DNA from: Chrysiogenes arsenatis DSM 11915
GTDB taxonomy: Bacteria; Chrysiogenota; Chrysiogenetes; Chrysiogenales; Chrysiogenaceae
Reading direction: 5' to 3'
DNA length: 64,000 nt
Assembly: GCF_000469585.1 (NCBI RefSeq)
Contig: NZ_AWNK01000004.1
Coordinates: 40,311-104,310 of the forward strand
Shown: positions 32,457-52,900 of the stretch, one piece after another
How the letters are laid out: every line of letters begins with the position of its first letter
Position numbering within the stretch: position 1 is the stretch's first letter
Position numbers and translations under genes: made by a program
The notes under the pieces: model-generated
What the model was told of the DNA's origin: nothing
The model's input: the letters and a program-made list of their open reading frames with translations, nothing else
Database searches by the model: none

Positions 32457-32769
32457 CGCAAAACCTCCAGCAAAGAATAAAAACCATTTTTCAGCATAGT
32501 AACTGACCCATTCCTGACAGAACACCACAACAGACTAGTACGCTCAACAGCAGGAATCAACACTATTCATATTTCAGAAGAGTTGGTGAAGCACCTCCCC
32601 ACACCGAATATAAGACACATGAGAGTAAAGACATTAGGACTTGCGAAGCGGTATAAATCACTTATAGTACCCATGCGAAAAAGATCCACCACGCGGCAAC
32701 AAATCAAGATCCATTTATTTGACGCCTTTGTGCCGCCCAACCGAAACAAACTCAAGGAGTTTCCTAACC

Positions 32770-33696: not shown

Positions 33697-34551
33697 TTAT
33701 TCCCGCAGGGATATTTCTTTGTCCCACTCCCAGTAAAACGTGAGGTAAGGTTCGTTTGGGCGCCTCCACCCGAGTGAGATATGGCCAAGCATGGCATCGG
33801 GAAATCTTGAGAGGATCTGGATCACCGATGCGCGGCGAGAAATACTCAAGATCTCAAAGCATTGATCCTGCACGCACGGTAAGATATCCCTAATGGCTAC
33901 GTTTAAATCATACACTCGCAAATCCACCCCTTGGCTCTGTGGCGGAGTGTTGACGTACAGAATGTCCAGTTTTTTTTCGCCATCCACAGTTGCGACACCA
34001 ATCCGATCAAGTAGGCTACCGAAGATCGGTTCAGTAACAACCTCAGGAAGCAGTAAGGGAATCGTGGCTATGGTAGCACCGGGAACCATGTGGTAAGAAG
34101 TCACGCGCTCAAGTTTCCCACTTCGAGCCCGCCATTTGTAGCCACGACACCACAATGCCGATGGTTGCCAATAAAGTTGTTCTCCAACTTGCGTGGACAA
34201 ATGAACGGGAAATTCAAGATAGAGCTTGATGACCTCTGGCGTCGCTGACGACACGTTTTCCGGAGAGACTACCGCCGATTCAATTGCCAGATAACAAAAA
34301 TTTGCACGATCCCAATCGGCAAGAATTGATTCAGATACTATGTTCGGAACACCGCCAATCTCCTGAAAATGGGAAAACAATTCCATAGGGTCGAGATTCT
34401 GTTTATCAAACCCAAAAAGCAATCTACTGCCATCAAAGCCATTTGGTGTAATTTGCAGCGAACGTTCCCACCCTACCACTCTTGAACCCAACCAATGAGC
34501 GATTTGATAATAAACATCAAGAGTCAGAAGCTTATTGGAGTGGTTACTCAT
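33697..34551 (-). CDS. Hypothetical protein (284 aa), last gene of the operon
   Basis: Long ORF whose start overlaps the SecA-like gene stop by 8 nt. It has no signal peptide, TM segment or motif I recognise. Confidence 0.6.
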   Translation of the reverse strand: MSNHSNKLLTLDVYYQIAHWLGSRVVGWERSLQITPNGFDGSRLLFGFDKQNLDPMELFSHFQEIGGVPNIVSESILADWDRANFCYLAIESAVVSPENVSSATPEVIKLYLEFPVHLSTQVGEQLYWQPSALWCRGYKWRARSGKLERVTSYHMVPGATIATIPLLLPEVVTEPIFGSLLDRIGVATVDGEKKLDILYVNTPPQSQGVDLRVYDLNVAIRDILPCVQDQCFEILSISRRASVIQILSRFPDAMLGHISLGWRRPNEPYLTFYWEWDKEISLRE

Positions 34552-36502
34552 AACTGGTAAATGTCATCCTTTTTTGACTTTCGCGTGTTGCCGTGTTCAT
34601 AAATCGACGTAAGCGAAAGGCTTTTAACTCAGCTCGGTGCTGTGTAAGTCGAATCATTGTTGTCCATAATTTATTATGGGGCCAGTGTTCTGCCAAAGAA
34701 CACAGAACGCGCAAAACGCATTTTGGCAACACGGCTCGCATAATCCCATCCTCAAGCGAAACCAGTGGGTACGCTTCGCCCGGATTTCCCTGCCGCCCAG
34801 CGCGACCGAAAAGTTGCCAGTCAATGCGAGCCGACTCATGCGGCTCCATCATGATGACGCGTAACCCTCCTGCTGCCATTACTTCCCTCGAAAGCTTAAT
34901 GTCCGTTCCCCTTCCCGCCATGTTCGTCGCTATCGTGAGTTGCCCTTTCTCGCCTGCACGGGCAACAATATCGGCCTCTTCGGTGAGCTTTTTGGCGTTC
35001 AAGAGCTGATATTTTACCCTCTCCCGATCAAGCCGACCGGCAAGTTGTTCGCTATCTTCAATGGTACGTGTTCCTACCAGCACAGGAATCTCCCGCACAA
35101 GCAATTCCCGCAAAAGATTCAATAAACCAAGCTCTTTTTCCTGTTTCGTTACAAACAGCTGAAAAGGCTGCACGATCAGTTGCGATGGAAGTCGTGAAGG
35201 AATTCGGAGTGTGCGTATCCGATAGTTAAAAAACAGCTCATGAGCAATATTCTGCAGTGTGCCACTCGCACCCGTCAGGCGCACATAATGTTTAAAATAA
35301 TTCTGAAAACTCATCCGCGCTAACGTTTTATTCGGGTGAGTGAGTGGTACACCAGCGCGAGCCTCTACTGCTTGATGCAGGCCGTAGCTCCACGATCTAC
35401 CCGGCATAGGACGGCCAGTGCCTTCATCAACAATCACCACCTCGTCGTCAAGCACTACATAATGCTGATCCTGAAGAAAGTAATCACGCGCTAGCACAGC
35501 CTGCGTAAATAAATCATGGCGTCTATGTCGGCCTCGCCAAATAGGGGGAAGCTCTTGAGCCATCTTTTCCATTAACTGTTCACCATGTGTCGTCCAACGC
35601 ACATCTCGGTGCAGCGAACTACACTGATAATCTCGGGGCGACTGTAATCTATCGACCAGCGTGCGTGCGACAAGAATAGCTTCGTGTAGTACTGGATTAT
35701 GATCTGCTCCAGAAATAATCATCGGAGTAATGGCTTCATCAATCAAAATATTATCGGCTTCATCGACAATTGCGGTATGAATGCCGCGCATCAGTAATCG
35801 ATGTGCGGTTTGCCCTTGAAGCATACGCACACTCATGGTCAGAGGCGTCACGGAGCCGCCGAAAGTGATTTGATCGGTCAGATAGTCGGCTAAGAGCTGC
35901 TTGGCCGTTGAATACACAACATCGGCAAGATACTGCGTTGGCTTCTCTTCCTGAGTATGGGTTTGCAGCACCGTAGCAACGGAAACACTGCAAAATTCGT
36001 AGAGCGGTGCCAACTCAGTAGCGTCACGCTCGGCTAAGTAGTCATTGGCAGTAATGACGTGACAAGGTCGGTTGCTCCACCCGAAAAGAATAGCGAGTAA
36101 GCCAATCGTAAGAGTTTTCCCCTCCCCTGGTGCTAGCTGTACCAAATATCCATCAAACATGGCGAGAATGGCTGCCATTTGCACTTGATATGGTTCCATG
36201 CCCAGCAGTCGCACCGATGCAAGTTGAAGGAGAGCAAGTGTTTTATGCAATAACAACCGTTCTGCAGAGAGTTGACCGGCAAGCGCGTGCAAGCGCATTG
36301 CATTCAGCTGATGGATCAATGCTTCTGGAGTCAAATCAGCGAGAGCGCGATAGTGCCGACCAATACCATCTGCTTCTTGCAGATAGTCACTCACTAGTTT
36401 TTTTTCTCGCCAGCGATGCCGCACCAGATGCCATTTTACGATGCACCAATACGGCTCTTTCGGGAGTTTTTTTAACGATGGAAGTTGCAACGATGCGAGC
36501 AT
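34544..36502 (-). CDS. SecA-like ATPase (NBD1, PPXD, NBD2) lacking the C-terminal translocation domains
   Basis: Segments line up with canonical SecA: LGMEPYQVQMAAILAMFDGYLVQLAPGEGKTL (Walker A), ITANDYLAERDA, IVDEADNILIDEAITPMIISG, DEGTGRPMPGRSWSYGLHQAVEA and TLARMSFQNYF. Further matches are PVLVGTRTIEDSE, LNAK, TIATNMAGRGTDI and HESARIDWQLFGRAGRQGNPG. The protein ends ~80 aa after that last motif. Confidence 0.85.
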   Translation of the reverse strand: MLASLQLPSLKKLPKEPYWCIVKWHLVRHRWREKKLVSDYLQEADGIGRHYRALADLTPEALIHQLNAMRLHALAGQLSAERLLLHKTLALLQLASVRLLGMEPYQVQMAAILAMFDGYLVQLAPGEGKTLTIGLLAILFGWSNRPCHVITANDYLAERDATELAPLYEFCSVSVATVLQTHTQEEKPTQYLADVVYSTAKQLLADYLTDQITFGGSVTPLTMSVRMLQGQTAHRLLMRGIHTAIVDEADNILIDEAITPMIISGADHNPVLHEAILVARTLVDRLQSPRDYQCSSLHRDVRWTTHGEQLMEKMAQELPPIWRGRHRRHDLFTQAVLARDYFLQDQHYVVLDDEVVIVDEGTGRPMPGRSWSYGLHQAVEARAGVPLTHPNKTLARMSFQNYFKHYVRLTGASGTLQNIAHELFFNYRIRTLRIPSRLPSQLIVQPFQLFVTKQEKELGLLNLLRELLVREIPVLVGTRTIEDSEQLAGRLDRERVKYQLLNAKKLTEEADIVARAGEKGQLTIATNMAGRGTDIKLSREVMAAGGLRVIMMEPHESARIDWQLFGRAGRQGNPGEAYPLVSLEDGIMRAVLPKCVLRVLCSLAEHWPHNKLWTTMIRLTQHRAELKAFRLRRFMNTATRESQKRMTFTSYE

Positions 36503-36504
36503 GC

Positions 36505-38652
36505 TTACTGGATCTGATAGCGTGATTGTAATAGCTGCCGCACTGCCAGAGCTATTTGCTCCAGAAGCGGTCTGGGCGACAATGCAATACGCATGACACC
36601 AGGAGCACCATCATAGAAAGCCGTTGGTGATTCTGAAAAACGCGCAATCACCTCAAAAAACGGCTCATCAGTTCGTAATCTCCCTTGAGCATCAGCTTGA
36701 GCAAAGAGCGTACCACCTCCTTGAAGTGCGAGTGCCGAAGAAGGGAGCTCGTGCTTCTGATACGGAATAAACTGCAGATCATGACTCTCCAGTGGCGAAG
36801 TAAACTGCCCAGGCAGACGGATTTCGGCACGTAGCAAGTTCGATCCGAAAAGATCTCCTGCCTGCTCTTGGGTAACAACACCGACAAACTGCTGCTTGCC
36901 CGGAGTAATCATTACCCCTAAACGCTCTCCACGCATAAAATGCGAATTGACCCGCGCCGGCATCACATCACTTACCCAGATCCCATCAGTCGGTGCCACC
37001 GTCTTGAGTCGATCAAGTCGTTTGTCAAGTTCATCCAGACGCCCCACCAGAAACGACTCGCGGTCATAGAGCGCTTTTAAATCACCCTGCTTACCATCCG
37101 TTGCTTTGCGGATAAGCCAACGAGTTTCCACCAATTGTTGCCCTGTCAGTTCATACTCCAGTTCTAATTCTGGATTGATAAACTCCATCAACACACTGCC
37201 TTGCTGCACGGTATCGCCAGAACGAACGACCAGCGCTGTCAAGGTTCCACCGGCTTCCGCATACAACGGCATCCGCTGCTCAGACAAAAGCACCCCCGGC
37301 GCAACAAGGGCATACGGCAGAGGAAATGTTGCCAATACCAGCAGAATGAGCAGCGGGGTAACGGCAGAAACAACGATGGCACGACGGCGATTCTGCCGTA
37401 ATTCGCTGCTTTTACGAAGATATTGCACGAGTTTCAACGTGGGGCCAATGAGCCACATGTAGCACATTGCGAGTAACATTAAAACACCGAGAAACAGTGA
37501 AAGGTCGGCCATATAAAGCAAAATCGCCACCATAACGAACAGGCGGTAACCAAAACTTGCGGCACCATACCCATAATACCAGTAACGTTCGTTACGGTTT
37601 TCCGCCGGCTCCTGCGCATCTTTGGTGCCAAGAAGTACTACGTTCGCAATATAATGCCACTGACGCCCCGCTTTCTGATAGAGATTCGGCAAATCAATCA
37701 GATCGGAGAGGACATAATAGGCATCAAATTTCAGCAACGGATTTCCATTAAAAACAAAACTCGAAATAGAACCAATAATCATGATGTTAAAAGCAAGACC
37801 ATTGACAAACCCGGGTGCTGTCAACCCCCAAACAATCGCCGCCAACGCCGCAAAAAACAACTCAACATACAGACCAGAGACTCCGACAAATGCGCGGTGC
37901 CACTTACTGCGCATTGACCATGACGAGCTCACATCAATGTAAGGAAGCGGAGCCAGCGCGATAAACATCACCCCAAGCGTATAGACATCACCACCAGAAC
38001 GGCGACATGCTATTGCATGCCCCATTTCATGAAGAAATTTCAAGAGAAACATGGCGACATAAAGCCACAAAAGGTTATCGACGGCTAAAATCCCTTGTGC
38101 CTGACTCGTAAACGATCCGAAATGGTCAATCACCGACTTCGCACCAAACAAAACCACAAGCAACCAACCAACAAAAGACCATCGCGAAAAAAAACGTTGC
38201 AGCCATCCGATATTGTTCTTCAGAAATTCATTCGGATTCCAAAGTGGAATTCTAAAATAGAGAAATGCCAGCAGGTGAGAAAGCTTTTCCTTGCGCCGCT
38301 GCTCCGCGTAGCGCTCGAAAATTGATTCGCTCTTGCCCTGTGAGCGGAAGAACAGAAGGCTCATCTGATGCAGTTGGGATAATAACATAATGACGGCATC
38401 TTGACTCGGTGCATCTTCGGGATACTCTTCCGTAAATGCTATCCAAAGCTCTTCAACCGTTCTTTCCGGAGTAAGGCGCGCAAGGAACAGATACGCCGGT
38501 TCCTGAACGCGGTAGTACTTCTCAGAACAACTATCTTGCAGCACATACCAGACCTGATCGCGATAGATCTGTTTATGAATGCGGATCGTCGGCAGTAAAC
38601 CAAGCCGCAGTGTCGCAACCTGATACCAAGATTCGCTGAATGTCGCAGACAA
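36505..38652 (-). CDS. Polytopic M50 (site-2 protease)-family protein with PqqD-like N-domain and C-terminal MFP/HlyD-like periplasmic module
   Basis: HEMGH at residues 208-212 within a TM segment, and NPLLKFDAYY at residues 304-313 within another. There are about eight hydrophobic segments between residues 150 and 450. The N-terminal residues ~37-100 are PqqD-like. The C-terminal 260 aa have lipoyl-type half motifs (AEAGGTLTALVVRSGDTVQQGSVLMEF and VAPTDGIWV) and a beta-barrel-like tail. Confidence 0.8.
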   Translation of the reverse strand: MSATFSESWYQVATLRLGLLPTIRIHKQIYRDQVWYVLQDSCSEKYYRVQEPAYLFLARLTPERTVEELWIAFTEEYPEDAPSQDAVIMLLSQLHQMSLLFFRSQGKSESIFERYAEQRRKEKLSHLLAFLYFRIPLWNPNEFLKNNIGWLQRFFSRWSFVGWLLVVLFGAKSVIDHFGSFTSQAQGILAVDNLLWLYVAMFLLKFLHEMGHAIACRRSGGDVYTLGVMFIALAPLPYIDVSSSWSMRSKWHRAFVGVSGLYVELFFAALAAIVWGLTAPGFVNGLAFNIMIIGSISSFVFNGNPLLKFDAYYVLSDLIDLPNLYQKAGRQWHYIANVVLLGTKDAQEPAENRNERYWYYGYGAASFGYRLFVMVAILLYMADLSLFLGVLMLLAMCYMWLIGPTLKLVQYLRKSSELRQNRRRAIVVSAVTPLLILLVLATFPLPYALVAPGVLLSEQRMPLYAEAGGTLTALVVRSGDTVQQGSVLMEFINPELELEYELTGQQLVETRWLIRKATDGKQGDLKALYDRESFLVGRLDELDKRLDRLKTVAPTDGIWVSDVMPARVNSHFMRGERLGVMITPGKQQFVGVVTQEQAGDLFGSNLLRAEIRLPGQFTSPLESHDLQFIPYQKHELPSSALALQGGGTLFAQADAQGRLRTDEPFFEVIARFSESPTAFYDGAPGVMRIALSPRPLLEQIALAVRQLLQSRYQIQ

Positions 38653-38655
38653 TTC

Positions 38656-40536
38656 CTACCTCCAGAGCGCAAGACGGATACGATTCAGCGTCTTGTGTGT
38701 ATAGATCCAGAAGTACGACCGTGGTTGCACATGAATTTTTGCCACCCCAGTCATACCAGGGCGCCACCACGTTTCACCATCCTCTTCAAGTTGAGCAATC
38801 ACGGTAAACCGCGCCCCCTCCTGCGACTTCACCTCAGCCATTGGAATTACGCGACTGATTCGCAGGGGAATTTTCCGCCCTGGCTGGCTGACCAGCGCAA
38901 ATTCGCCAATACTCCCCTCGCGCACATGGTGAATGTCGTCATGCGCTACTTCAACTACCACATATACATCTTCGGTTTGTGCAATACGCAGCAGGGGTTG
39001 CCCTTTGGAAACAGGTGCTGAAATCAGCTCGCGCCGCTCCCCTTCGACCACTACCCCAGTAAAGGGAGCGTGCATATGTGCTTGCGAAAGCTGATAATTC
39101 ACCCGCTCCATACGGGCTTTCACCTGCTCAATCCGTGCCAAAGCAATCGCCAAGTCCACACTGGTAAACTCTGCCCGAGCCCGATCAGCTTCGGTTACGT
39201 TTCGCTGTAACTCCGCTTGGAGTTCGGCAAGTTGCATCAGCAAATCTTGCACATCAAGCGTCAGCAACGGATCACCTTCCACCACCTCGTCACCACTGGT
39301 GACATAGGCATCGATGATCACCCCCTCAAAAGGGGCCGTAATGAGCCGAGTATTGTCCGTAACAAACTGCCCAGTCCCTTCAACAGTATGCATGGTGGAG
39401 AATGTCAGCGAGCCAAACAACAGTAAAGATCCAGCCAGTACCAACGACTTAACCAGCAGATTTTCTGCCCCCGCAAGACGGCCAATTGTGCGCAGAGCAA
39501 CCGTCCGCAACCGATCGCGCCATTCGGCATCTTGCAAATACAATTGTTCCAGCCGCGGCATCACGGTTCGTGCCAGAAAGTGCACCGCCTCGCAAGGAAG
39601 TTCCGGCAAATCATCACGGTAGTTGACGAGTGTCAATGCGAACACGGTATGGCCGTGAGAGTTCACAAGCGGAAAAGTCATAATAGATCGTGCCGCAAGG
39701 TGGGTTTGTAGTTGTTGATGAGCAAGGGTAATTACCTTTCCATCCGAAGCACGGTGACTTGAATAATGAATGGCGGCAACCTGATCCACCGACTCCTCTA
39801 AAGCCGCTTCAAACAGTCTAACGGTATCGGTTTTTTGCTCAAAGCGCTCATAGTGGCTGATCCCCTTTACCCGTGTATACGCCCCCTCTTTCCAGCCCAG
39901 CACGACCTGATCAAAGGCGCTCTGGTAATTAACGATGCCATTGGCTAACGCATACACAGCCGCTTGAAAGTTTTCGGATTGATATATTTCGCTCAGCAAG
40001 TCGAGCAAGCTTGCGAGCATGTTTTCGTGCGCCGTTTTCCGCGCATCAACTGCTTTTGACTCTGTACCTAACAACGCTGACGTGTTCAAGACGGACTCAT
40101 CCTGCACAAAGTCGAGCATTAACTGGGCACGCACAAGAATGTCGTTCAAACGTGTTGCAGCATCACAATCAATCGCTAAAATCAAAAAATATGGGGTAGG
40201 ACACAACGCACGGAGCGCGACGAAGCCGATTGACCCATCGATATGGGGATGGGGTGGACGGTGGGCAAATCCACTGGCTTCGGCCCGCTGCAGAAAAAGG
40301 AAAAATTCCTGCGTGTCTAACAAAGGCTTTGACGGGCTTTTCTGTTCTAAATCGCTGGTAGCAACCAAAAGCAGTTGATGTTCCTGTACCAAAATGAGTT
40401 CCGCACTCGGCACACGGCATACGTTCTTGACGAGCACCAGATAATCTATCCACGATGCTTGACCTGCTTGAGACTGAGTGACCCGTACGTGGTATAATTC
40501 CTGTAATCGTTGGCGAAATGCTTCTTTAGAGGCCAT
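38656..40536 (-). CDS. HlyD/MFP-family periplasmic adaptor with ~370-aa cytoplasmic N-terminal domain and one TM
   Basis: Single TM LLVKSLVLAGSLLLFGSLTF near residue 375. Then ITAPFEGVIIDAYVTSGDEVVEGDPLLTLD, a coiled-coil hairpin, HAPFTGVVV and a beta-barrel region ending GMTGVAKI. Confidence 0.8.
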   Translation of the reverse strand: MASKEAFRQRLQELYHVRVTQSQAGQASWIDYLVLVKNVCRVPSAELILVQEHQLLLVATSDLEQKSPSKPLLDTQEFFLFLQRAEASGFAHRPPHPHIDGSIGFVALRALCPTPYFLILAIDCDAATRLNDILVRAQLMLDFVQDESVLNTSALLGTESKAVDARKTAHENMLASLLDLLSEIYQSENFQAAVYALANGIVNYQSAFDQVVLGWKEGAYTRVKGISHYERFEQKTDTVRLFEAALEESVDQVAAIHYSSHRASDGKVITLAHQQLQTHLAARSIMTFPLVNSHGHTVFALTLVNYRDDLPELPCEAVHFLARTVMPRLEQLYLQDAEWRDRLRTVALRTIGRLAGAENLLVKSLVLAGSLLLFGSLTFSTMHTVEGTGQFVTDNTRLITAPFEGVIIDAYVTSGDEVVEGDPLLTLDVQDLLMQLAELQAELQRNVTEADRARAEFTSVDLAIALARIEQVKARMERVNYQLSQAHMHAPFTGVVVEGERRELISAPVSKGQPLLRIAQTEDVYVVVEVAHDDIHHVREGSIGEFALVSQPGRKIPLRISRVIPMAEVKSQEGARFTVIAQLEEDGETWWRPGMTGVAKIHVQPRSYFWIYTHKTLNRIRLALWR

Positions 40537-40548
40537 AAAACCACACCA

Positions 40549-41433
40549 TCACAGCTGCACTCGCGCTTTTAATCCTGGCCGAAACCGATTATCCACGTTG
40601 CGATATTCAACCTTCACTTCGACTAATCCACTTGCCGGATCAGCTACTGGTGAGAGAAAAGAAATCGCCCCTTGTGCGCGCGTGGATTCCACTGCAAAAT
40701 CAACTTTTTGCCCTATCGTAAGCTTCGCTGCGATAGCACTCGGAATACTGATGCGGATGTAAATATACGAAGTATCAACCAGTTCGATGATCGGCTCACC
40801 CGCCTGAGCCCATTCCCCTTTTTTGAGGCGAATTTGGGTGATAAATCCTTTACTGGGCGCGAGTAGAGTCCGTTGGGCAAGGACTTGTCGGCCAATTTTA
40901 TAATCGTAGTCTTGTTTTTTTTCTTCTAACTCAAGCAGTGCAACTTCGCTCTCTGTTGTGACTCTATTGATGATCATTTGATTGAGCTCATCAAGACTGA
41001 TTGATCTACTTTCATGGTACAACTCAAGAGCGGATTTTACTTGCTCCACTTGCAGCAGTAACCGAGCGCGAGCCCCGTCCAATGCACTCTTGTCCCGCAT
41101 CAGCGTTTCAAGGCGCGACAGTTCAAGTTGCTCAATATGTTGCTCCAGCACCAAGAGCGGTGTTCCCTGATCGACGTAGGCTCCTTCTGCGATCTTGACT
41201 TCACTGACCACACCGCTAACCGCCATTGCGAGCAAGTAGCGCTCACGAGGGTACACCACACCTACCATCGCATCACTTATTGCAACCGTCTCATGTGGAC
41301 TCACCTCTGGACTAAATGAACGGAAATCGCCACGCGAACGAGTGCTTGGAGCCTCGCTCGCTATAGCGAATACATTCAAGGACAAAAACAGCAGGAAAAA
41401 AATACAGTTGGTCAATCGCATAGTGCCCTTCAA
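40549..41433 (-). CDS. Secreted MFP/HlyD-family periplasmic adaptor
   Basis: Signal peptide ending AIA|SEA. Lipoyl halves (VSGVVSEVKIAEGAYVDQGTPLLVLE and LAPSKGFITQI), a coiled-coil hairpin, and a beta-barrel with LVEVKVEY. Confidence 0.85.
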   Translation of the reverse strand: MKGTMRLTNCIFFLLFLSLNVFAIASEAPSTRSRGDFRSFSPEVSPHETVAISDAMVGVVYPRERYLLAMAVSGVVSEVKIAEGAYVDQGTPLLVLEQHIEQLELSRLETLMRDKSALDGARARLLLQVEQVKSALELYHESRSISLDELNQMIINRVTTESEVALLELEEKKQDYDYKIGRQVLAQRTLLAPSKGFITQIRLKKGEWAQAGEPIIELVDTSYIYIRISIPSAIAAKLTIGQKVDFAVESTRAQGAISFLSPVADPASGLVEVKVEYRNVDNRFRPGLKARVQL

Positions 41434-41437
41434 AATT

Positions 41438-43027
41438 CTACAGTGCTTCTACGTCAAACTGAATGCCGAGTTCCTGCAACAGGCTACCATCCGAAAGCTG
41501 AAGACTGATTTTTGCCAGTTCATATTGAATCTCGGCATCCACCATACGGATTATACCCACGTTGAGATTATCTTCGCGCTCAATCATATCAATGTAGCGC
41601 GCTACACCGCGGTCAAACCGTTCCCGCTCAATTTCAAGCAGTTCCTTGAGGACAGTGGTATTCTGCCGATGACGATCCAACTCTTGATACGCTTGATCTA
41701 CCTGTGCAAGCCGCAACTGAAGTTGATTTGAAAGGTCTACCTTTACCGCTTCAGCCTGATATTGATTTTGGGTAATTCGTGAAAGCGCTATGGATTCTTT
41801 CGAACGCGCACTTTGATTACCACCTAAAGGGATGGAAAACTCAACACCAGCATACCAGTTGGGATAACGCTCCGAAAATGCTTCTTCAAAAGTTCTGCCG
41901 TAGCGCTCATCATACCGAAGGCTACTTTGGCCATAGCCCGCAACAAAATCGAGTTTTGGACGCAACTCATCGCGGGCTATCGCCAGAGAATGTTCTTCCA
42001 GCGCAATACGTTCTATTGCAATTCCGTAATTCGGCCAAACACTGAGAACCTGCTCAAAGTAAGTCTGAAAACTTTCCGGCTGTTGCCACGCGGTAGTGTC
42101 AGGCTCTGAAGTCGTCTGAAAAACAACGTGCTGATATTCATTGGCTGAGAGGTTGAGAACCCCCTTAATCGCACTTTTCACTTGTTCATACCCGCGCTCT
42201 ACGACAAATGATTCTGCCTGACGAAGTAGAAGGGTAGAACGGGCTTCGGTCATAGCAGTTTGCGGTAAGCGCCCAGCTTGCACGCGCCGCTCAATATCGG
42301 TGAGGATATTATTCGCATTTTTCAATGAATCTGCATTCAAAGCTTTCATCTGTTCGGCACGGTACAGCCGCCAGTAGAGGCTGAGCGCATCGTATGACTT
42401 ACTCAGAATCTGTTGCTGAGTTTCCTGTTTGCGGATTTCAATCTGTTTTTCTGATTGTGCGATCCGATTCTCAATTTGAGCCGCCCCAAATCCGCGCAAA
42501 ATTGGTTGACGGATACGGAAATTCAGCGAACCGACATTGTCGTTAATCCCAGTAGGATCATTCACCGAGCTCGTATTATTATAGCGTTTATGCCCTTCAT
42601 ATTCGACAGAGACCTCAGCCCCAGAAACGACTAACGTGCGCACGCCAAACTGAAAACGACCATTGCGGTCTATCGTCGTGTCATTAGGGGCTAACGGATT
42701 ATTTTCGGTTTTTCGCTCATCAGCACGGAGTATTGAAAAAAATTCCATCTCGTATGCGGCGCGATCATGCTGTAGTTGCGCCTCAGCAATTTTTTTCTGC
42801 TCTGCACTTACGAGCACCTCAGGATTGCGTAGGAGCACAAGGTGCACGAAAGACTCTTTATTTAGAGCCACAGCACCTTGTTGTATTTGCGTCAGCACTT
42901 GTTCGTGGCGATTCATGTCACCATGAGAAGGTTGACTCTCGGCCCACGCGGGAATGGCCAGACACGCTGCCGAAACCGCTAAACCTGCAAAAACTTTTTG
43001 GGGGCAAGAAAGTATATTCCGTATCAT
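41438..43027 (-). CDS. TolC-family outer-membrane channel protein
   Basis: Signal peptide ending PAWA|ESQ. Two-fold repeat organisation with long helical and short beta segments, with size and pattern typical of outer-membrane efflux proteins. I chose ATG 43027 after AAGAGG. 4-nt gap to the next gene. Confidence 0.85.
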   Translation of the reverse strand: MIRNILSCPQKVFAGLAVSAACLAIPAWAESQPSHGDMNRHEQVLTQIQQGAVALNKESFVHLVLLRNPEVLVSAEQKKIAEAQLQHDRAAYEMEFFSILRADERKTENNPLAPNDTTIDRNGRFQFGVRTLVVSGAEVSVEYEGHKRYNNTSSVNDPTGINDNVGSLNFRIRQPILRGFGAAQIENRIAQSEKQIEIRKQETQQQILSKSYDALSLYWRLYRAEQMKALNADSLKNANNILTDIERRVQAGRLPQTAMTEARSTLLLRQAESFVVERGYEQVKSAIKGVLNLSANEYQHVVFQTTSEPDTTAWQQPESFQTYFEQVLSVWPNYGIAIERIALEEHSLAIARDELRPKLDFVAGYGQSSLRYDERYGRTFEEAFSERYPNWYAGVEFSIPLGGNQSARSKESIALSRITQNQYQAEAVKVDLSNQLQLRLAQVDQAYQELDRHRQNTTVLKELLEIERERFDRGVARYIDMIEREDNLNVGIIRMVDAEIQYELAKISLQLSDGSLLQELGIQFDVEAL

Positions 43028-43063
43028 CGTCAACCTCTTTGTATCGGCATAGATGGCCATGGC

Positions 43064-43128: not shown

Positions 43129-43875
43129 TTATGACTCAGCGATTACAGGCTCTGTTTCACCTGGCTTCAGGCTCGTCTGCCCATCTTTTAGCATCGCCAA
43201 GCGTTCAAGTTGGCTGAGTGAGGTTAAATGAGCAAAGATAGGCGCAAAGTAGCGCTTTTCGCGTATTTCAAGAAAGCGCTTATCGGAAAGATTATTCAAA
43301 CGCTCCTCATTGATCACATAACAACCAGTTACGTTGCGAATCTGCCCACCGTAGCGCACACGCATACTGAGCGGAGTAAAGAGATTATTTTCAGCCATGA
43401 ACGTACAGAATGCCTTCGTGAAGATCTCCATTTGTTGCATTTCGCCAAGGTATTTTTTTACATTGTCGATGATCACGGTTGGCTCACCTTTTTCAAACAA
43501 CGCTTGGCCATCTTTTGTCCCAACACAGTCCGCATCTTCATCAATGCAAACTGTAAATTGATCAGCTTGATCACTTTTAGCGAGGGCAAAAGGGTAACGG
43601 CGGATAATGGCTGGCACATATGAAGCCTTCCAACTCCCATCTTCAGCGATAAATAGATTTTCTCCGGCATCAAGGCCAAACATCACAACAGGCTTAAATT
43701 CATCCTGCTCTTTGTCTTCAAGGAAAACAATCGGATACACCGATGCCGCCCGAGCAAATTCATGCACCATGAGTGACGCAATATGAAACTTACTGGCAAA
43801 GGCAAAGCTGCTAATAGGTGTCACTTTTGTCTTCGCATGTTTGTCCTTGTTAAGCGGAACCAATTTTTTAAACAT
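43129..43875 (-). CDS. SapC-family protein
   Basis: The N-terminal pattern LVPLNKDKHAKTKV...F......H...L...EF..AA..YPIVFLED and ~250-aa length match SapC-family proteins as I know them. The gene starts 26 nt after the giant-gene stop. Confidence 0.75.
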   Translation of the reverse strand: MFKKLVPLNKDKHAKTKVTPISSFAFASKFHIASLMVHEFARAASVYPIVFLEDKEQDEFKPVVMFGLDAGENLFIAEDGSWKASYVPAIIRRYPFALAKSDQADQFTVCIDEDADCVGTKDGQALFEKGEPTVIIDNVKKYLGEMQQMEIFTKAFCTFMAENNLFTPLSMRVRYGGQIRNVTGCYVINEERLNNLSDKRFLEIREKRYFAPIFAHLTSLSQLERLAMLKDGQTSLKPGETEPVIAES

Positions 43876-43901: not shown

Positions 43902-46900
43902 TTAAAACTCAAATTCTTCCTCTGTGTAGAAGTCGAAAATGAAACTATCTTGAATACTTGAGCCAAAGCTCGAAAACTGGAAGTCTCCATAGAAGTTAAC
44001 CACCTTGCTGGAAGTATACGGCATTTGCAGGTTGAAACCTGGCTCTAAGCCTACTGGCGCTTGCTGCATAAATCCAAAGTCGAAGTTGATGCCACCAAAC
44101 ATTCCGTCAGAGATGCCAAGATCGCTCAAGTTCATAAAGGAACTCATGGTGGCTTTCTGTAAACGTGACAAGCTTGCATGATCAAGGAATGTTGTCGCAT
44201 TGTGCAAACGCAGAGCATCCATATTTTCTATCGATAATTCTTGGATTGTTTTACTTGCACTAGCCGAAGCGCCTCCCCCTTGAGATCCACTGAAGCGCAC
44301 TGACTCAAAAGCACTCAATTTGAATTCCGCTCTCACTGGACCATGAACAACGGCGTGATTACCCACAGAAATCACGTACACTCGCTGATCAATACCACGG
44401 ATACCAAATATATAGCTATCACCAGTAGCATCATCAACAACACTATACAGTTGCCCAGGACCGACAATGCCATGAATCTGCGCTGCATCTATCTTCAGTA
44501 AGTCAGCGCGGATAGCTTCAAGTTGAGGTATCAGGCTTGCTACTGGCTGATCAATAAAAAACGGTATCGTCTTGATAAACACCTGATTGGCAACAATATT
44601 GGCTGCTTGTGTCCCGAGCGAACTCTGGATACGATATTCCGAACTTTCAAGCCACACATCACCACCCGTCGCAACGTGAGCAATCAACAAAATACTATCG
44701 GTCGAGGTAAAGTAAATATCGCCTCGCTCTGATAATGTCTGTGCACTTGCTTTCATCTCTATGACCGGAGCCGTGTAACGAACTTCCCCCTGCCCCGTCA
44801 GCGACAGAGTGGCCTCTTGCACAATACTTTTTCCAGATGAAAGGACAACGGTACTATCGACGCCTGAGATATTCATAGCAAGAATCAGTGAACCATGTAC
44901 GGCATGGAGTTCGATAGTGCCATGACTACTCGTTCCATTCAGCATTGAATCCGTAATTTCTTCAACAAGAGCTTCATTGGTCATCCGCAGCACCGTTAGC
45001 TCACCGAACTGGTCATTATCACCAATGCGCAAATCTTCTTGGGCGGCAAGGAAGATACCACCATGACCAATATCCGCACTCAGTGAATCGACTTCAACCA
45101 CAAAAGGACGCCCTGATTCACCAAGTTGACTACCAGTAACCCGCAGATACTTTGCTAGGATATTCACGGTACTTGAAGGAGCACTGGTTATGACGCCACC
45201 AACCAGACTGACCGCAGTTGGAGTTGTTACATGAGAGATGGACATACTGTGAGTTGCTTCGATGCGAATATTGTTCTGAGTTTGCAATAGAGCTTTAGCT
45301 GTCATGGAGACTGATTGGGCACTAATGTCGAGCGTCGCATCTCCTGTAATATGAACCAGACTGTCGATAAACTCCACATTGCCGTTCCGCGCTAACAACG
45401 ACACATTACCACTGCTGGCAATGTCGCTCTGCACGATAATGGATCCATTTTCAACTTCTATTTGTAAGTGCTCGCCAGAGAAATTCAACGCACCATCAAG
45501 TATAAAGTTTCGCTGCTCACCGGAAACGCCTGCCTGCACCATTATGACAGTTACGGTGTCGGTTGCCAATTCAAGCTCAGACAAACGCAGATCACCACTA
45601 GTGGTAATGGTATTTAACCCCGCTATGGTGAATACCCCCTGCAGGGTAGTAGTCCCGCCACTGTGAGCACTTAGATCGCCACCAACCGTGAGGTTTCCTT
45701 CAATTGTCAAAGTTTCATCGGTTTTGATAGTCGTGTCACCGGTGATAGTGATTGCATCGCTGAGTATTACTGCTCCGGTTCCGGTGATAGCAAGGTCGCC
45801 GCCAATCTCTAGTGTGCCTTCGACGGTAGTTGCTCCGCCGACTGTCAGGGTAACATTGGCGCTGGTGAAAGTTCCTTCTATCAGCAGGGCATCGGTTGAT
45901 GTTAGTTCAGTACTTCCTTCAACGATAAAGATTCCGTCTAGGATGCTCTCGCCTGCACTGCTTGTGGTAAGGGCGCCACCAACAGTGAAGTTTCCTTCAA
46001 GTGTCAGGTCAGCATCGGTCTCGATAGTCGCGTCACCAATAATAGTGATTGTATCGTTGAGCATCACCGCTCCGGTTCCGGTGATAGCAAGGTCGCCGCC
46101 AATATCTAGTGTGCCTTCGACGGTAGTTGCTCCGCCGACTGTCAGGGTAATGTTGGCGCTGGTGAAAGTTCCTTCTATCAGCAGGGCACCGGTTGATGTT
46201 AGTTCAGTACTTCCTTCAACGATAAAGGTTCCATCTAGGATGCTCTTGCCAACACTGCTTGTGATGAGGGCGCCACCAACAGTGAAGTTTCCTTCAATCG
46301 TCAGGTCGGCATCGGTCTCGATAGTCGCGTCACCGCTAATGGTGATTGCATCGCTGAGCATCACCGCTCCAGTTCCGGTGATAGCAAGGTCGCCGCCAAT
46401 ATCGAGCGTACCTTCGACTGTAGTTGCTCCACCGACTGTCAGGGTGACGTTGGCACCGCTGAAGGTTCCGGTAATCGATAAGTCTGCTTTCGCATCGATA
46501 GTCGTGTCACCGCTAATGGTGATTGCATCGCTGAGTATTACTGCTCCGGTTCCAATGATAGCAAGGCTGCCTGCAACATCCAGCTCACCTTCGATAGTGG
46601 TTGTTCCGCCGATTGTCAGGGTGACATTGGCGCTGGTGAAAGTTCCTTCTATCAGCAGGGCACCGGTTGATGTTAGTTCAGTACTTCCGTCAACGATAAA
46701 GGTTCCATCTAGGATGCTCTTGCCAACACTGCTTGTGATGAGGGCGCCACCAACAGTGAAGTTTCCTTCAAGTGTCAGGTCGGCATCAGTCTCGATAGTC
46801 GCGTCACCGCTAATGGTGATTGCATCGCTGAGCATCACCGCTCCGGTTCCGGTGATAGCAAGGTCGCCGCCAATATCTAGTGTGCCTTCGACGGTAGTTG

Positions 46901-49900
46901 CTCCGCCGACTGTCAGGGTAACGTTGGCGCTGGTGAAAGTTCCTTCTATCAGCAGGGCACCGGTTGATGTTAGTTCAGTACTTCCGTCAACGATAAAGGT
47001 TCCGTCTAGGATGCTCTTGCCAACACTGCTTGTGATGAGGGCGCCACCAACAGTGAAGGTTCCGGTAATCGATAAGTCTGCTTTCGCATCAATGTTGATG
47101 TCACCGTCAATGGCTATTGCATTACTGAGTATCACCGCTCCGGTTCCAGTGATATCAAAGTTGCCAGCAACATCCAGCTCACCTTCAATAGTGGTTGCTC
47201 CACCAACTGTCAGGGTGACGTTGGCACCGCTGAAGGTTCCAGTAATCGATAAGTCTGCTTTCGCATCGATGTTGGTGTCACCGTCAATGGCGATTGCATT
47301 ACTGAGTATCACCGCTCCGGTTCCAGTGATGCCAAGGTTGCCAGCAACATCCAGCTCACCTTCGATAGTGGTTGTTCCGCCGACTGTCAGGGTGACCTTG
47401 GCACCGCTGAAGGTTCCGGTAATCGATAAGTCTACTTTCGCATCGATGTTGGTGTCTCCGTCAATGGCGATTGCATTACTGAGTATCACTGCTCCGGTTC
47501 CAGTGATATCAAAGTTGCCAGCAACATCCAGCTCACCTTCAATGGTAGTTGTTCCTCCGACAGTCATGGTGACGTTGGCACCGTTGAAATCTCCGTCAAT
47601 CGTCAGGGCTGCATCAGTATCGATAGTCGTGTCACCGGTGATAGTGATCGAATCGCTGAGCATTACCGCTCCAGTTCCGGTGATGCCAAGGTTGCCGCTA
47701 ATATCCAATGTGCCAGCGACTGCGGTTGTTCCACCGACTGCCAAGGTGACGTTGGCGCCAGTAAAGGTTCCGATAATCGCCAAGCCTGCTTTCGCATCGA
47801 TGGTCGTGTCACCGGTGATAGTGATCATATCGCTGAGCGTTACCGCTCCGGTTCCGGTGATGCCAAGGTTGCCGCTAATATCCAGTGTACCAGCGACTGC
47901 GGTTGTTCCACCGACTGTCAGGGTGACATTGGCACCGCTGAAGGTTCCGATAATCGCCAAGCCTGCTTTCGCATCGATAGTCGTGTCACCGCTAATGGTG
48001 ATTGCATCGCTGAGCGTTACCGCTCCGGTTCCGGTGATAGCAAGGTTGCCTGCAACATCCAGCTCACCTTCAATAGTGGTTGCTCCACCGACTGTCAGGG
48101 TGACGGCGGCGCCGGTAAAGTCTCCTTCTATCAGCAGGGCACCGGTTGATGTTAGTTCAGTACTTCCTTCAACGATAAAGGTTCCGTCTAGGATGCTCTT
48201 GCCAACACTGCTTGTGATGAGGGCGCCACCAACAGTGAAGTTTCCTTCAAGTGTCAGGTCGGCATCGGTCTCGATAGTCGCGTCACCGCTAATGGTGATT
48301 GTATCGCTGAGCATCGCCGCTCCGGTTCCGGTGATAGCAAGGTCGCCGCCAATATCGAGCGTACCTTCGACGGTAGTTGTTCCTCCGACTGTCATGGTGA
48401 TGTTGACACCAGTGAAATCTCCATCTATCGTCAAGTCTGCTTTCGCATCGATGTTGGTGTTGCCGTCAATGGTGATTGCATTGCTAAGTGCAACGTTTCC
48501 GGTTCCGGTGATGCCAAGGTCGCCGGTACTCACCAGCCTACCTTCGACGTTAGTTGCGCCTCCGACAGTCATGGTGACACCACCGCCGGTGTATCTCCCT
48601 TTAAGTGTTAAATCATTTGTGGCAGAAAGGTTGCTACTTCCTGTTGTGCTAAAAGTACCGCGCAAGATACTTGCACCATCGCTGTTCGCGACGAAGTCGC
48701 CAGCAACGGTTAACTCGCCTATGATTGTCAGGTCTGCTTTCGAATCGATGGTCGTGTCACTGCGCAGCTTGAAATCACCAATAAGAACCATATTGCCCTG
48801 ACTGTTGATTGTACTGGTGCCGCTTACCGTGAGTGACAGCGCACTTGCCTGATTGCTGGTGAGCGCTCCAAGGGTATCAATGTGCAACGTTCCGGCAACT
48901 GCATTTCTACCAAAGAGGTACGTGTCGCCATCTATAAAGAGCGTCGCATCACCGTTGAGCGTAGTGACGTTCAGGCTCGCAATGCGCACCTCGCTCTGAG
49001 TATTTGCGCCAAGGGAAATATCGCCATTGGTGGCGCGCATGGTGGTTTTGCCACCAAGTCGCAATACATCATCGGTATCATTGGCCAGTGCTATTGATTG
49101 GGCGGTGAATGAGTTATCGCCCGTCACGATAAGCTGTGTACTGGCGCCAGCGGTAATACTCTCTGGCGTAGTCACATTAAGGCGTCCCGCCGTATTGCTG
49201 CCTACAAACGTCACGGCATTATCAAGTTCCAATACCACTGCGCCAGCACTGTTGACCGTCAAGGTTCCGGCAGAGAAAAAGTCACCAACAGCATTGCCAA
49301 GACGAATTTCCCCGCCAGAGAATGCGGCATGACCTGTAATCGTAAGTTGTGCTTGCGTCAGGTTGGAAAGCACATTGACCGCTTGCGCACGAAGATCTCC
49401 ACCGACAGTGATATTCGATAGGGTTAAATTGTTGGCAGCCTTCAAATGGACATTTTTGGCTTGATGCACCGTCACGGCACCACCAAAGTTATGACTATTG
49501 TCAAATACAATATCCGATGCCGCATCAGCCGTGAGCTTTGTGATTCCCGTGACCGACAACTTGCCCGTCGCGCCATCATTAAGAGAACCCGATACCACCA
49601 GTTCTAGTGTTTTAGCAGTGCTTTCCCCCGCTAACACCATATCGCCATCGTGTGTTATGCGCACATTGCCATTGCTCACAAAGGTCAGAGTGCCAGTAGT
49701 GAAGGAATCGGTATCGATAGTAACGGCACTGCCTGAGAAACGGGAATTCTCTTCAACCGCAATCTGCGCCCCCTCTAGAGTACTCAGCTCATGAACCGCT
49801 GTCGCAACAAGATTGCCGGTGACGGTCAGATTTGCCAGTGTCAAGGTATTCACATCGCTGAGTGTTACATTCCGAGCGCCGAGCACGGTCACTGCGCCAC

Positions 49901-52900
49901 CAAAGTTGTGCGCGTTATCCAAAATGATATCGGCAGTCTCCGTTGCCTGCAGTGTTGTGGAGCCTGTAACCGTCAGGGTAGCATCAGTTCTGTTGGTAAC
50001 GGTGCCTTGTGCCGTCAAAGAAAGATTACCGCCGGCAAAGCTTGCACCGGCTAAGGTGAGCGGTGCGCTTTGGGTAATCACAACATTGCCAGTGGTACTG
50101 AATTGGAGTGCACCAAACGTAACATTTGATTCCGTGCCAATCACAATATCCGAACCGTCGCCAACCAGCAACGCTACCACACCAGCGACATCAATAGTCA
50201 CGTTAGCTTCGGTTTCAATACTTCCATCCGTTTCTAGGATAAGATCATTCGTCACATTCACAGCACCAAGATGAATAGACTGGGTATTTTTTAACGCCAC
50301 ATCATACGCATTGGTTATATGAATCGCACCACCCAGACTATGATTATTGTCAAGGTGGATAGCTTTTTCGTCTGCCACACGAAGTAATGTAGCGTTGATA
50401 ACGTGAAGCACACCGGTATCACCATCCGTGATATTGCCCGTCGCATGTAACGTCAGTTGCTGAGTAGAACTCGCTTGCAACAGGAGTAGATCACCCGTGT
50501 GAGAGATCTCAACCGCACCCGTCGTCGTAAATTGCAGCGAGCCAAAACGTGCCGTTACCGGCTCATCAATCGTAATATCTGCCCCACTGCCCGCCGTGAA
50601 AGAGGCGTGACCAAGTACGGTAATAATTGTTTCATTGCGTGTACCGATCGCACCATCCACTGTCGTCAGCACCAGTGACCCGGCTGTATTATTACCTGTC
50701 ATGATGGCATCAGCACCAGCCGCTACGTTTACAATAACCTCGCCCTCACTGGAAAACCGCATGGTTTCGGTGCTAAAATTATTCTCAATACCCAAAGTAA
50801 TGCTGGCAGCGGTAACATCTGTCAATCCACCAACTTCAATGGTATCCACTTGGCTTACGTGCCCGCCAGCATGAACTTTCAAATCACTATTGCTAGTAAT
50901 TGCGCCTAGCTTTACGTCATCAATATCAGCAATCGAAATGGCATGCTCGCCATCATTCAAAATCAATACAACGCCAGTAAAGTTATTTGTACTATTAGTT
51001 AAAGCAATCTCACCCGCCTGAGTGGTAAACGTTACCAAACCAGCATTGAGAGCTTGTACCAATGCGCCCGTTTGCGTTATGGCACCGGTGGCCGCAATGG
51101 TTAACGACCCACTCCCCACACTTGATGTCCCCAACTCCAGTGCTCCATCCTGCGTCAGCGTAACCGCATAGTCACCAGAGTTATGTAAATGCACCGTACT
51201 CGCGAACTGATTCGAAGTATCATCAAGTGTTATAACCCCAGCACCCGCGCTCAGGTGTGCCACTCCACCCACCGTAATGGCGCCAGACTGCACAATTCCT
51301 TGACCAGCTACGCGCAAGTCACCACGTATCGATGAGACACCCAATTCAAGTTGCTCATTTGTTGCTACCGTGACATTCGCACCTATCAACGCCACCGCAC
51401 CAACAAAGCGGTTTTGCGCATCAGTCAGCGTGATGTCAAATCGTTCATCACCACTTGCGGCAGTGATGCGACTCTCACCACTAATCACCATAACCCCTGC
51501 TTGCGAAATCACACCATGAGCATAAATATCCATATCACCTGTTATCGTAAGCTCTCCAAGTTCCAGCGCACGGTTGTTCACAATGTTAGCGCTCGCTGCC
51601 ACAAGGGACACATTACCCGAAAACTCGTTTGCTAGATTCTCAAGTACAACCGACCCCGTTGCATGGAGTGCCATATCACCACTGACGTCTAACGCGCCAG
51701 ATTGTGTAATATTTCCTGCTGTCACAACGGTGAAGTCGCCACTTATGGTTGATGCACTCAGTTGAGTGTTCAACATATTGTGCACGGTTACATTGTGCGC
51801 ATTAGCAAACGTCACAGAACCGGCCAGGCGATTATTTTCATTTTCCAGAAGAACATTCGATCCCGCCGTGACCGTGAGTAGCGTCGTACCACCCACCTCT
51901 AGCCAAGCCGCAGTATTTGCTAAAATTCCACCAACCGTTGACGAGAGAGCGACACCTCCTGTCACCACACTCTGCCCCGTGAGGGTGATCGCCGAACCCG
52001 TATCGCAAAGCGTAACGTCCGTTGCCTTCAATTGCAGTAATCCGGACGTGAACCCATCGCTATCATCAATTCCCAGTGTAATATCAGTTGTGGCCGTCAA
52101 GTCAGCAAGCCCCGCCACACTAATAGCCGTTCCGGTAGCCTGTATAATCGCACCAGCAGTCGCATCGAGTGTGAGCGAGCCACTGAGCGTCACATTCGCC
52201 AGCGAGACTGACTGATCCACGAGAGATGCATTTTTGCCACGCAAGGCCACTGAGCCAGTAAAGTTATTGCCTACATGAGTTAAGGTAATATCATAATCGG
52301 TTATGCCATCAAGACTACGAGCCTCTATCTCACTCCAACCGGTAACAGTAAGTGAACCACTTTGAGTAATATCGCCCGCCGCACTTATATCGAGATCTCC
52401 ACCAACCTGACTTTCAAGCAGTGTCAACGCCTGTTGATTCTGCAACGTTACATTTCCGCTGACATCAAGCTGTAAACTATCCGTTGCCAGTGTTGTCCCT
52501 GAAGCCTGTGCCACATCACCAGTGGCTAGAATAGTTAGGTTTCCATCAACTACGGTATTGCCGAGTGTAAGCCCGTGCGTCGTAATCAGGCTCAGATTGC
52601 TGGCAGAAGTCGCGACAGCTTTCAGAGTAAGCGTGGTGCCATACACGGTAGTGTCCGTATGTAACATTGCAGCCGCATCCAGCGACGCGCCCACAGTAAC
52701 CACACCACTAGCCGTTTCGTTGCCCTGCCATTCACCTCCGGCCTTTTCAAGATGACCGAAAATGAACTGGCTAAAGCCATGAGAATTTGCCAGCATCGAA
52801 TTGCTGATATTCAGCGCATCGCCAGCACTTACGCCAATATTCACGTTGCGCTCAGCGCTATACGCTCCGATGATCAACTCGGAACCATCACTTCCGGTGA

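Follow-up and report, generated by a model that had tools for sequence, protein, structure and literature searches.

What might a bacterium do with a protein that joins a peptide-recognition domain, an intramembrane protease and a periplasmic adaptor in one chain? The question is raised by a minus-strand gene at positions 36505..38652 of a 64,000-nucleotide stretch of Chrysiogenes arsenatis DSM 11915 (assembly GCF_000469585.1, contig NZ_AWNK01000004.1, positions 40,311 to 104,310), hereafter called the window. An earlier note on this DNA had described the gene product as a three-part fusion of a PqqD-like domain, that is, a recognition element (RRE) of peptides that ribosomes synthesise and that are modified after translation (RiPPs), with a site-2 protease (S2P) core of the M50 family and a module of the membrane fusion protein (MFP) type. 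From sequence comparisons and structural models, we lean with modest confidence to the view that the fusion is the inner-membrane core subunit of a conserved exporter of giant surface or secreted proteins, which would resemble a type I secretion system (T1SS) lacking an ATP-binding cassette (ABC) protein. More tentatively, and with confidence that stops a little short of even, we propose that the fusion is the signature of an undescribed secretion system dedicated to giant proteins with a LEPR-XLL leader, which it would recognise in the RiPP style, leader to RRE. That system would do without an ABC protein; besides the RRE-S2P-adaptor fusion, its parts would be a GAF-containing adaptor, a third adaptor, a TolC-like outer-membrane factor (OMF) and, as the motor, a truncated SecA-like protein. 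The gene and the parts of its product, including the transmembrane (TM) helices, are as follows.

36505..38652, minus strand: RRE-M50-MFP fusion, whole gene, 715 aa; TTG start at 38650-38652, stop codon at 36505-36507
38344..38613, minus strand: RRE/PqqD-like domain, residues ~14-103
37411..38184, minus strand: predicted M50/S2P membrane core, residues ~157-414, with six TM helices and a re-entrant beta-hairpin at 226-239 (from Pfam, NF041824, the AlphaFold2 (AF2) model and hydropathy)
38017..38031, minus strand: HEMGH zinc-binding and catalytic motif (H208, E209, H212), residues 208-212, invariant in 43 orthologues
37723..37743, minus strand: NPLLKFD (N304, P305, D310), the expected third zinc-ligand motif, residues 304-310, invariant
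37324..37389, minus strand: predicted seventh TM helix, residues 422-443, after a strongly basic loop; leads the chain to the periplasm and anchors the adaptor
36508..37323, minus strand: periplasmic adaptor (MFP) module, residues 444-715, with lipoyl half-domains, alpha-hairpin, beta-barrel and C-terminal helix

The protein is 100% identical to a C. arsenatis 'hypothetical protein'. A GGAGG lies about 8 nt before the TTG, which itself stands 3 nt past the stop codon of the upstream gene. In our reference alignment of 43 orthologues (39-61% identity), the N-terminus of the target matches the pattern MxxTFSESW, and we take the TTG start to be correct because the orthologues likewise open with this pattern. 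A plus-strand reading of the same interval was rejected, its frame being riddled with stops. The three-part fusion was upheld for all its domains at the level of family and fold, by Pfam and NCBIfam models run on the 43 orthologues, by the AF2 model built from the alignment (mean pLDDT 84) and by Foldseek.

The RRE assignment is robust at the fold level, as judged from the model. AF2 placed beta strands at residues 16-19, 23-30, 33-40 and 46-50, followed by helices at 51-58, 66-76 and 84-96, which reproduces the winged-helix plan of the RRE fold (a three-stranded beta-sheet, then three helices), and the best fold matches of the N-domain were peptide-binding RREs. The target alone scored 18.2 bits against PqqD (PF05402), under the gathering score of 23.4, and Pfam matched PqqD in 19 of the 43 orthologues at E<=0.01 (best 3e-6). 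Together with the matches of NF041824, a model that spans this region and hits every orthologue, these results bear out the PqqD/RRE similarity that had been claimed from a peptide now placed at residues 37-101. A long amphipathic linker joins the RRE fold to the first TM helix in the AF2 model. Ahead of the fold, residues 4-9 (TFSESW; 38626-38643, minus strand) are among the best-conserved stretches of the protein, with S6 and W9 invariant and F5 nearly so; this segment might be a partner contact or an occupant of the RRE groove.

The central part carries the marks of an M50 protease. The HEMGH motif sits at the end of TM helix 191-218, in keeping with the family, in which HExxH lies within a TM helix, and the second M50 motif, NxxPxxxxD, is present as FNGNPLLKFD (residues 301-310). 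Across the 43 orthologues, H208, E209, H212, N302, N304, P305 and D310 showed no variation, so that the conservation expected of HExxH and NPxxxxD in the earlier note extends to every sequence compared. M50 (PF02163) matched the target alone at 24.7 bits, short of the gathering cutoff of 27.2, and matched all 43 orthologues at E<=0.01 (best 7.5e-9). The zinc protease is thus apparently active, as far as conserved motifs can tell. Two other roles for this part were rejected. A dead protease, or mere scaffold, was rejected as the lead reading in view of the invariant zinc-ligand motifs. A regulatory S2P acting on an anti-sigma factor was set aside as well, with no sigma or anti-sigma genes nearby and with the protease fused to an RRE and an adaptor.

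Hydropathy and the AF2 model agree on seven membrane-spanning helices plus the re-entrant hairpin: the helices lie at residues 157-176, 191-218, 250-277, 282-299, 353-384, 386-414 and 422-443, and the beta-hairpin at 226-239 is of the type found re-entrant in S2P structures. Over the 43 orthologues, the mean number of lysines and arginines was 0.4, 0.0 and 0.0 in the predicted periplasmic loops and 2.8, 4.6 and 3.7 in the predicted cytoplasmic segments. Because the basic residues concentrate in the latter, the prediction supports a topology with the N-terminus in and the C-terminus out, in which the RRE and the active site would face the cytoplasm and the adaptor would lie in the periplasm. 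The earlier note had expected the same orientation of its two end domains.

The C-terminal 270 aa share the build of the adaptors MacA, MexA/AcrA, EmrA, HlyD and TriA/TriB. Lipoyl, alpha-hairpin and beta-barrel elements are all present, the hairpin consisting of two helices of about 25 residues (494-518 and 522-547) in the AF2 model, and the module is predicted to lie in the periplasm behind a membrane anchor, the seventh TM helix, which follows the basic loop with the mean of 3.7. NCBIfam adaptor models matched the target sequence alone weakly; over the 43 orthologues, RND_mfp matched 41 and type_I_hlyD 29 (NCBIfam), and HlyD_D23 matched 24, Biotin_lipoyl_2 22 and HlyD_3 16 (Pfam). A Foldseek search of the whole AF2 model against PDB returned MacA, MexA, AcrA, Spr0693, ZneB and CusB at 1e-12 to 1e-9, and a sequence profile searched against PDB sequences returned a MacA/MexA chimera at 5.7e-8 as well as TriAB (6vej) and EmrA. 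Known adaptors have a lipid or single-TM anchor and serve a separate transporter of the ABC, resistance-nodulation-division (RND) or major facilitator superfamily (MFS) type, whereas this one is fused to a six-TM protease.

The three-part architecture is widespread. A full scan of 1.84 billion cluster representatives at 50% identity gave 3835 proteins at E<=1e-30; the best matches were nearly all 710-740 aa long and aligned end to end, and the architecture was retained down to 33% identity. At least 594 encoding loci were found in a scan of one genome per species. Judged by record titles, the hosts include members of the Gamma- and Betaproteobacteria, Desulfobacterota, Campylobacterota (Sulfurovum), Verrucomicrobiota/Lentisphaerota, Planctomycetota and metagenome-assembled genomes of Anaerolineales. 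Family members bear generic annotations ('hypothetical', 'site-2 protease family protein', 'PqqD family peptide modification chaperone', 'biotin/lipoyl-binding protein', 'putative peptide zinc metalloprotease'), and no dedicated NCBIfam model for the fusion family matched the target or its 43 orthologues.

For a survey of gene context, we fetched 84 related loci, of which 81 were left after removal of duplicates, and searched their open reading frames (ORFs) with the window's own proteins. Reading in window coordinates, the minus-strand order is a giant ORF, SapC, a TolC-like OMF, a 294-aa adaptor, a 626-aa adaptor, the target, a 652-aa SecA-like protein and a 284-aa ORF. These genes look like one operon because they lie 2-68 nt apart or overlap. 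The neighbours of the fusion gene in the window are listed here (NBD, nucleotide-binding domain).

34544..36502, minus strand: truncated SecA-like ATPase, 652 aa, with NBD1, preprotein cross-linking domain and NBD2; 2 nt from the stop codon of the target
38656..40536, minus strand: long adaptor, 626 aa, with a predicted cytoplasmic N-domain of ~360 aa, one TM helix (360-378) and an MFP part; directly upstream of the target
40549..41433, minus strand: short adaptor, 294 aa, with a signal peptide; occurs in most related loci
41438..43060, minus strand: TolC-like OMF, 540 aa (Pfam OEP); occurs in most related loci
43129..43875, minus strand: SapC-family protein, 248 aa (Pfam SapC 3.3e-69); found in proteobacterial versions of the module
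43902..64000, minus strand: giant repetitive protein, the presumed substrate, >6697 aa, open at the window end and rich in DUF5649; ends ...SFIFDFYTEEEFEF
33697..34551, minus strand: 284-aa ORF that overlaps the stop codon of the SecA-like gene by 8 nt

The same gene layout recurs across several phyla. Among the 68 loci that extended far enough, 66 had the SecA-like gene directly downstream of the fusion gene. The long adaptor was its direct upstream neighbour in 69 of 73 loci; in the four exceptions, the adaptor gene immediately followed the SecA-like gene or stood farther upstream. Of the 58 loci with room for an ORF of 900 aa or more next to the module, 34 had one no more than 2.5 kb away, and it usually ran off the contig. 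Annotated giant neighbours reached 13,222 and 13,361 aa. In two Hydrogenophaga loci, the order is permuted (OMF, fusion gene, SecA-like, short adaptor, long adaptor), and an Lcl_C-domain protein of ~446 aa is encoded between the giant gene and SapC (L016:5958-7298 and L004:5973-7310). No ABC, RND or MFS gene was present in the window operon, so the separate inner-membrane transporter that MFPs usually serve is missing there; nor did any such gene figure among the conserved partners in 80 loci, although the queries used on these were confined to proteins of the window itself. Of the set that defines a T1SS (ABC, adaptor and OMF), the adaptors and the OMF are thus present, and a SecA-like ATPase occupies the place of the ABC protein. 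As for membrane segments, the 626-aa adaptor has one TM helix, the 294-aa adaptor and the OMF have signal peptides only, and SapC, the SecA-like protein and the 284-aa ORF have none. The earlier claim that the fusion is the only candidate inner-membrane conduit in the operon therefore holds in one sense, namely that no other polytopic membrane protein is encoded in the operon.

The N-terminal two-thirds of the target, with an RRE ahead of an M50 core, share the plan of MpaP, the RRE-dependent intramembrane leader peptidase of daptide biosynthesis, and the N-terminal fusion of an RRE to an S2P is a known architecture that has served as a handle for daptide discovery (PMC10028931). The daptide intramembrane metalloprotease model NF041824 aligned with target residues 23-401 at E=6.8e-45, covering profile positions 7-366 of 379, and matched all 43 orthologues; the YydH/LiaK model matched 40 of them. 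Measured against the equivalog cutoffs, the scores of the target were 153.8 versus 300 for NF041824 and 23.7 versus 225 for YydH/LiaK. The presumed logic is alike, with a leader bound and then cut at the membrane, but the target has about 300 more residues, which make up the seventh TM helix and a full periplasmic adaptor. The surroundings differ as well. Daptide clusters hold short precursors with a C-terminal threonine and enzymes of the MpaB, MpaC, MpaD and MpaM types, whereas here we found a SecA-like protein, adaptors, an OMF, SapC and a giant ORF, with neither tailoring genes nor short precursors. The daptide substrate is a peptide of about 50 aa, the presumed substrate here a protein of more than 6,000. 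Daptide clusters have been reported from Actinomycetota and Bacillota (PMC10028931), while the sampled loci of the target family belong mostly to Gram-negative lineages. By sequence, the target is homologous to the MpaP family and no member of it, because it reaches half of the cutoff score, has another gene context and carries about 300 added residues.

This relationship raises the possibility of an ordinary RiPP system, in which a small leader-bearing peptide would be matured and exported in the manner of daptides or epipeptides and the giant genes would be mere neighbours. The top HMM matches of the protease part, daptide MpaP and YydH/LiaK, would fit, as would the name given by JGI, 'putative peptide zinc metalloprotease', which corresponds to KEGG's yydH term. 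Yet both scores fall far under the equivalog cutoffs, the gaps of 2-68 nt leave no space for a precursor ORF, modification enzymes are missing, and the conserved partners are SecA-like proteins, adaptors, OMFs and giant LEPR-XLL ORFs instead of tailoring genes. We regard an ordinary RiPP system as very improbable. As to novelty, the RRE-S2P fusion was already known, and it is the adaptor fusion and the gene context that appear new. Our search of the open-access literature returned no description of an RRE-S2P-adaptor fusion or of its gene module; in reviews of adaptors and T1SS, apparent mentions of M50 turned out to be residue or reference strings, and a preprint on giant genes mentions SecA-like domains solely within giant proteins of Omnitrophota.

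The nearly constant partner of the fusion, the SecA-like protein, aligns to residues 33-558 of Bacillus subtilis SecA (E 1.3e-94) with intact Walker A, DEAD-like and arginine-finger motifs. When it was aligned to solved SecA structures, the match stopped within or just after NBD2, and nothing corresponding to the helical wing domain, two-helix finger or C-terminal tail was detected. In SecA, the helical wing domain and the two-helix finger lie C-terminal to NBD2 and engage SecY. NCBIfam models for SecA and SecA2 scored about half their cutoffs on the SecA-like protein, and no SecY or SecY2 gene was present in the window operon. A Sec or accessory Sec system would comprise a full-length SecA with helical wing domain and two-helix finger, SecY or SecY2 and substrates with a hydrophobic signal peptide, a combination that does not occur here. 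The SecA-like ATPase might nonetheless drive the giant protein across the inner membrane through the housekeeping SecYEG, with the fusion serving as an anchored adaptor and peptidase and not as a conduit. Such a route gains from the retention of NBD1, the preprotein clamp and NBD2, and from the general absence of known S2P channels. It is at odds with the lack of detectable SecY-engaging C-terminal regions, with LEPR-XLL leaders that have no hydrophobic h-region and with the tight, near-universal coupling of the SecA-like and M50-adaptor genes, which suggests a direct partnership. We consider passage through SecYEG distinctly improbable.

On the other side of the fusion gene, the N-domain of the long adaptor was matched by GAF models in 13 of 20 orthologues, the window copy not being flagged by Pfam. 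Because of this GAF domain, the sequences suggest that the apparatus is controlled by a small molecule or signal. A sensor domain on the adjoining adaptor would also suit a quite different role for the protease, that of release or quality control: the M50 site would cut the giant protein or a stalled intermediate, the GAF-adaptor would regulate the cut, and the RRE-like domain would contact a partner such as the SecA-like ATPase. LapA and other giant T1SS adhesins stay lodged in TolC until regulated proteolysis sets them free, and S2Ps commonly serve regulated intramembrane proteolysis. Adhesin tethering is also mentioned in a recent preprint (bioRxiv 10.64898/2026.03.19.712371). Three findings argue otherwise: the S2P active site is predicted to be on the cytoplasmic side, beside the RRE; the nearest relatives are RiPP leader peptidases (NF041824, NF058609); and the RRE fold is closest to peptide-binding RREs. 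A release function is in our judgement quite unlikely.

The ORF list gives the giant ORF of the window as complete, with 6697 aa and an ATG at 63995. Ahead of this ATG, however, stands TTC; because this is not a stop, the gene extends past the window end. T1SS substrates are marked by an uncleaved C-terminal signal, by RTX repeats or by both; in the window giant, Pfam found only DUF5649 repeats and no RTX repeats. Homologue searches with segments of the window giant returned nothing, not even the protein itself. In related loci, the large neighbouring ORFs that start inside the fetched DNA carry an N-terminal LEPR-XLL, with scores of 33.5, 29.6 and 32.0 bits for NF012209 (LEPR-XLL) against a cutoff of 17. 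A LEPR-XLL scan of 828,627 translated residues gave 13 matches, 12 of them at the N-termini of such ORFs. The loci with LEPR-XLL starts are listed here.

L008:15267-15400, L023, L025, L032, L033, L038, L043, L044, L050, L051, L064 and L079: LEPR-XLL starts of large flanking ORFs

In the consensus of these leaders, a basic stretch precedes [FY]x[LV]E[PAG][LM]E[PQA]R[ILV]LLS[AG]DP..G..QA, and they have no hydrophobic core of the Sec type (h-region). Cag_663/665, the giants of Chlorochromatium that are encoded beside SapC and TolC genes, are likewise reported to begin with LEPRxLL (bioRxiv 10.64898/2026.03.19.712371). A LEPR-XLL/RTX protein has been described from Vibrio (PMC10868602). The LEPR-XLL core, Phi-E-P-Phi-E-x-R, resembles the daptide motif L-D-P-M-E-A-P, as seen from L-E-P-M-E-P-R (L023) beside E-L-D-P-M-E-A-P (MpaA). 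Both RRE binding and RRE-dependent processing of MpaA require L(-7) and M(-4) (PMC10028931), and the hydrophobic pair of LEPR-XLL has the same i/i+3 spacing. This short-motif likeness between the presumed ligands of homologous RRE-S2P proteins is suggestive.

Many giants also share a motif at their other end, an acidic and aromatic tail of roughly [FY][DE][FY]W.E[DEN]h.h-COOH. The window copy (43902-43950, minus strand) reads ...FIFDFYTEEEFEF, and elsewhere the tail appears as ...FEYWIEDVVF, ...FDYWVESLTL or ...FDLWVEELML, in at least 12 loci (including L002:5150-5229, L005:6780-6861 and L016:5830-5914). A second class of tail, ..PLLRSTGQLL.E..W.., was found in the betaproteobacterial loci L035, L054, L055 and L061, and tail-less giants also occur. 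The RRE could bind the C-terminal acidic/aromatic tail (for example ...FDFYTEEEFEF) as a secretion signal of the T1SS kind, and the M50 site may trim it. The signals of classical T1SS are C-terminal, the SapC, TolC-like and HlyD-like genes point to a T1SS-like logic, and the tail motif is shared by the window giant and at least 12 related loci. Known RRE-S2P enzymes, however, work on N-terminal leaders (PMC10028931), and the daptide motif is resembled by the LEPR-XLL core and not by the tail. The existence of a second tail class and of tail-less giants also counts against a general signal of this type. A SecA-type motor, moreover, is expected to thread its substrate N-terminus first. All in all, recognition of the tail by the RRE seems unlikely.

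Returning to the exporter that we favour, the order proposed in the earlier note, in which a substrate segment is bound, cleaved and handed over to a duct, is consistent with the gene context. The RRE would bind the N-terminal LEPR-XLL leader of the giant protein, and the M50 site would cut it off where the membrane faces the cytoplasm, in the way that MpaP removes daptide leaders. The SecA-like motor would then thread the unfolded chain over the inner membrane, and the MFP part, together with the other two MFPs, would build a periplasmic duct that docks on the OMF. The TriABC pump, which employs two adaptors, is a precedent for mixed adaptors, and an OMF gene is found in the operon of the target. 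The overall logic (leader recognised and cleaved, cargo exported) would be that of peptidase-containing ABC exporters, achieved with unrelated parts. In the C39-domain exporters, an inner-membrane component recognises and cleaves the leader, and one such component likewise passes the cargo to the adaptor and OMF, as we propose for the target; this is an analogy of function only, since those exporters combine a cysteine peptidase with ABC domains, whereas here a zinc S2P, recognition by an RRE and a separate SecA-like ATPase would do the work, and the sequences are unrelated.

Closer in gene content are the Sap system of Campylobacter fetus (SapCDEF) and the Chlorochromatium Cag_663/665 loci, where SapC and TolC genes stand beside very large secreted proteins, as in the window. 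The Sap system uses the ABC transporter SapD plus one adaptor. The module described here has no ABC protein and contains the M50-adaptor fusion and the SecA-like ATPase instead. For the Chlorochromatium giants, a Sap/T1SS route has been proposed, and the M50-adaptor fusion goes unmentioned (bioRxiv 10.64898/2026.03.19.712371).

Several observations weigh against an exporter built on leader recognition. Of the 58 loci with room, 24 show no adjoining giant ORF; in these, the substrate may be encoded elsewhere or may be a different one. The N-terminus of the window giant lies beyond the window end, and its LEPR-XLL leader is assumed from related loci. The apparent likeness between LEPR-XLL and the daptide motif spans only about 7 residues, and the C-terminal tail of many giants offers the RRE an alternative ligand. 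A profile of the N-domain searched against PDB sequences returned no PqqD/RRE chain, its sole match being Erv1p, which is spurious (E=0.18), so that at the sequence level the evidence for the RRE hangs on the Pfam and NCBIfam models. Finally, we know of no S2P that acts as a protein-conducting channel. The inner-membrane route is the weakest link of the proposal, the fusion being the sole candidate for it in the operon; an oligomeric ring of M50 cores forming a pore is speculation.

The 284-aa ORF at the downstream end of the module had no Pfam or NCBIfam match and no homologue in any of 80 related loci, and we therefore do not count it among the conserved genes of the module. Its place is taken in Thiomicrospira by a choline-kinase/APH-like gene (L001:12922-13839). 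Further downstream in the window lie ordinary genes, all on the minus strand: a Band7/HflK-like gene (31545-32528) with NfeD (31123-31548), and a UmuD/UmuC-like pair consisting of a Peptidase_S24 gene (30658-31095) and a Y-family polymerase gene (29375-30661).

For bacterial proteins of 6,000 to >30,000 residues that are exported without Sec or RTX-type signals, the module offers a candidate for each step: LEPR-XLL as the signal, the RRE as its receptor, the S2P for processing, the SecA-like protein as the motor, and three adaptors with an OMF as the duct. If our reading is correct, one machine would unite leader recognition of the RiPP kind with intramembrane proteolysis, a SecA-type motor and a tripartite duct, and annotators would gain a marker for giant-protein export among genes that are now labelled only generically. 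The leader-recognition logic of peptide natural products would then have been adopted to export some of the largest known proteins.

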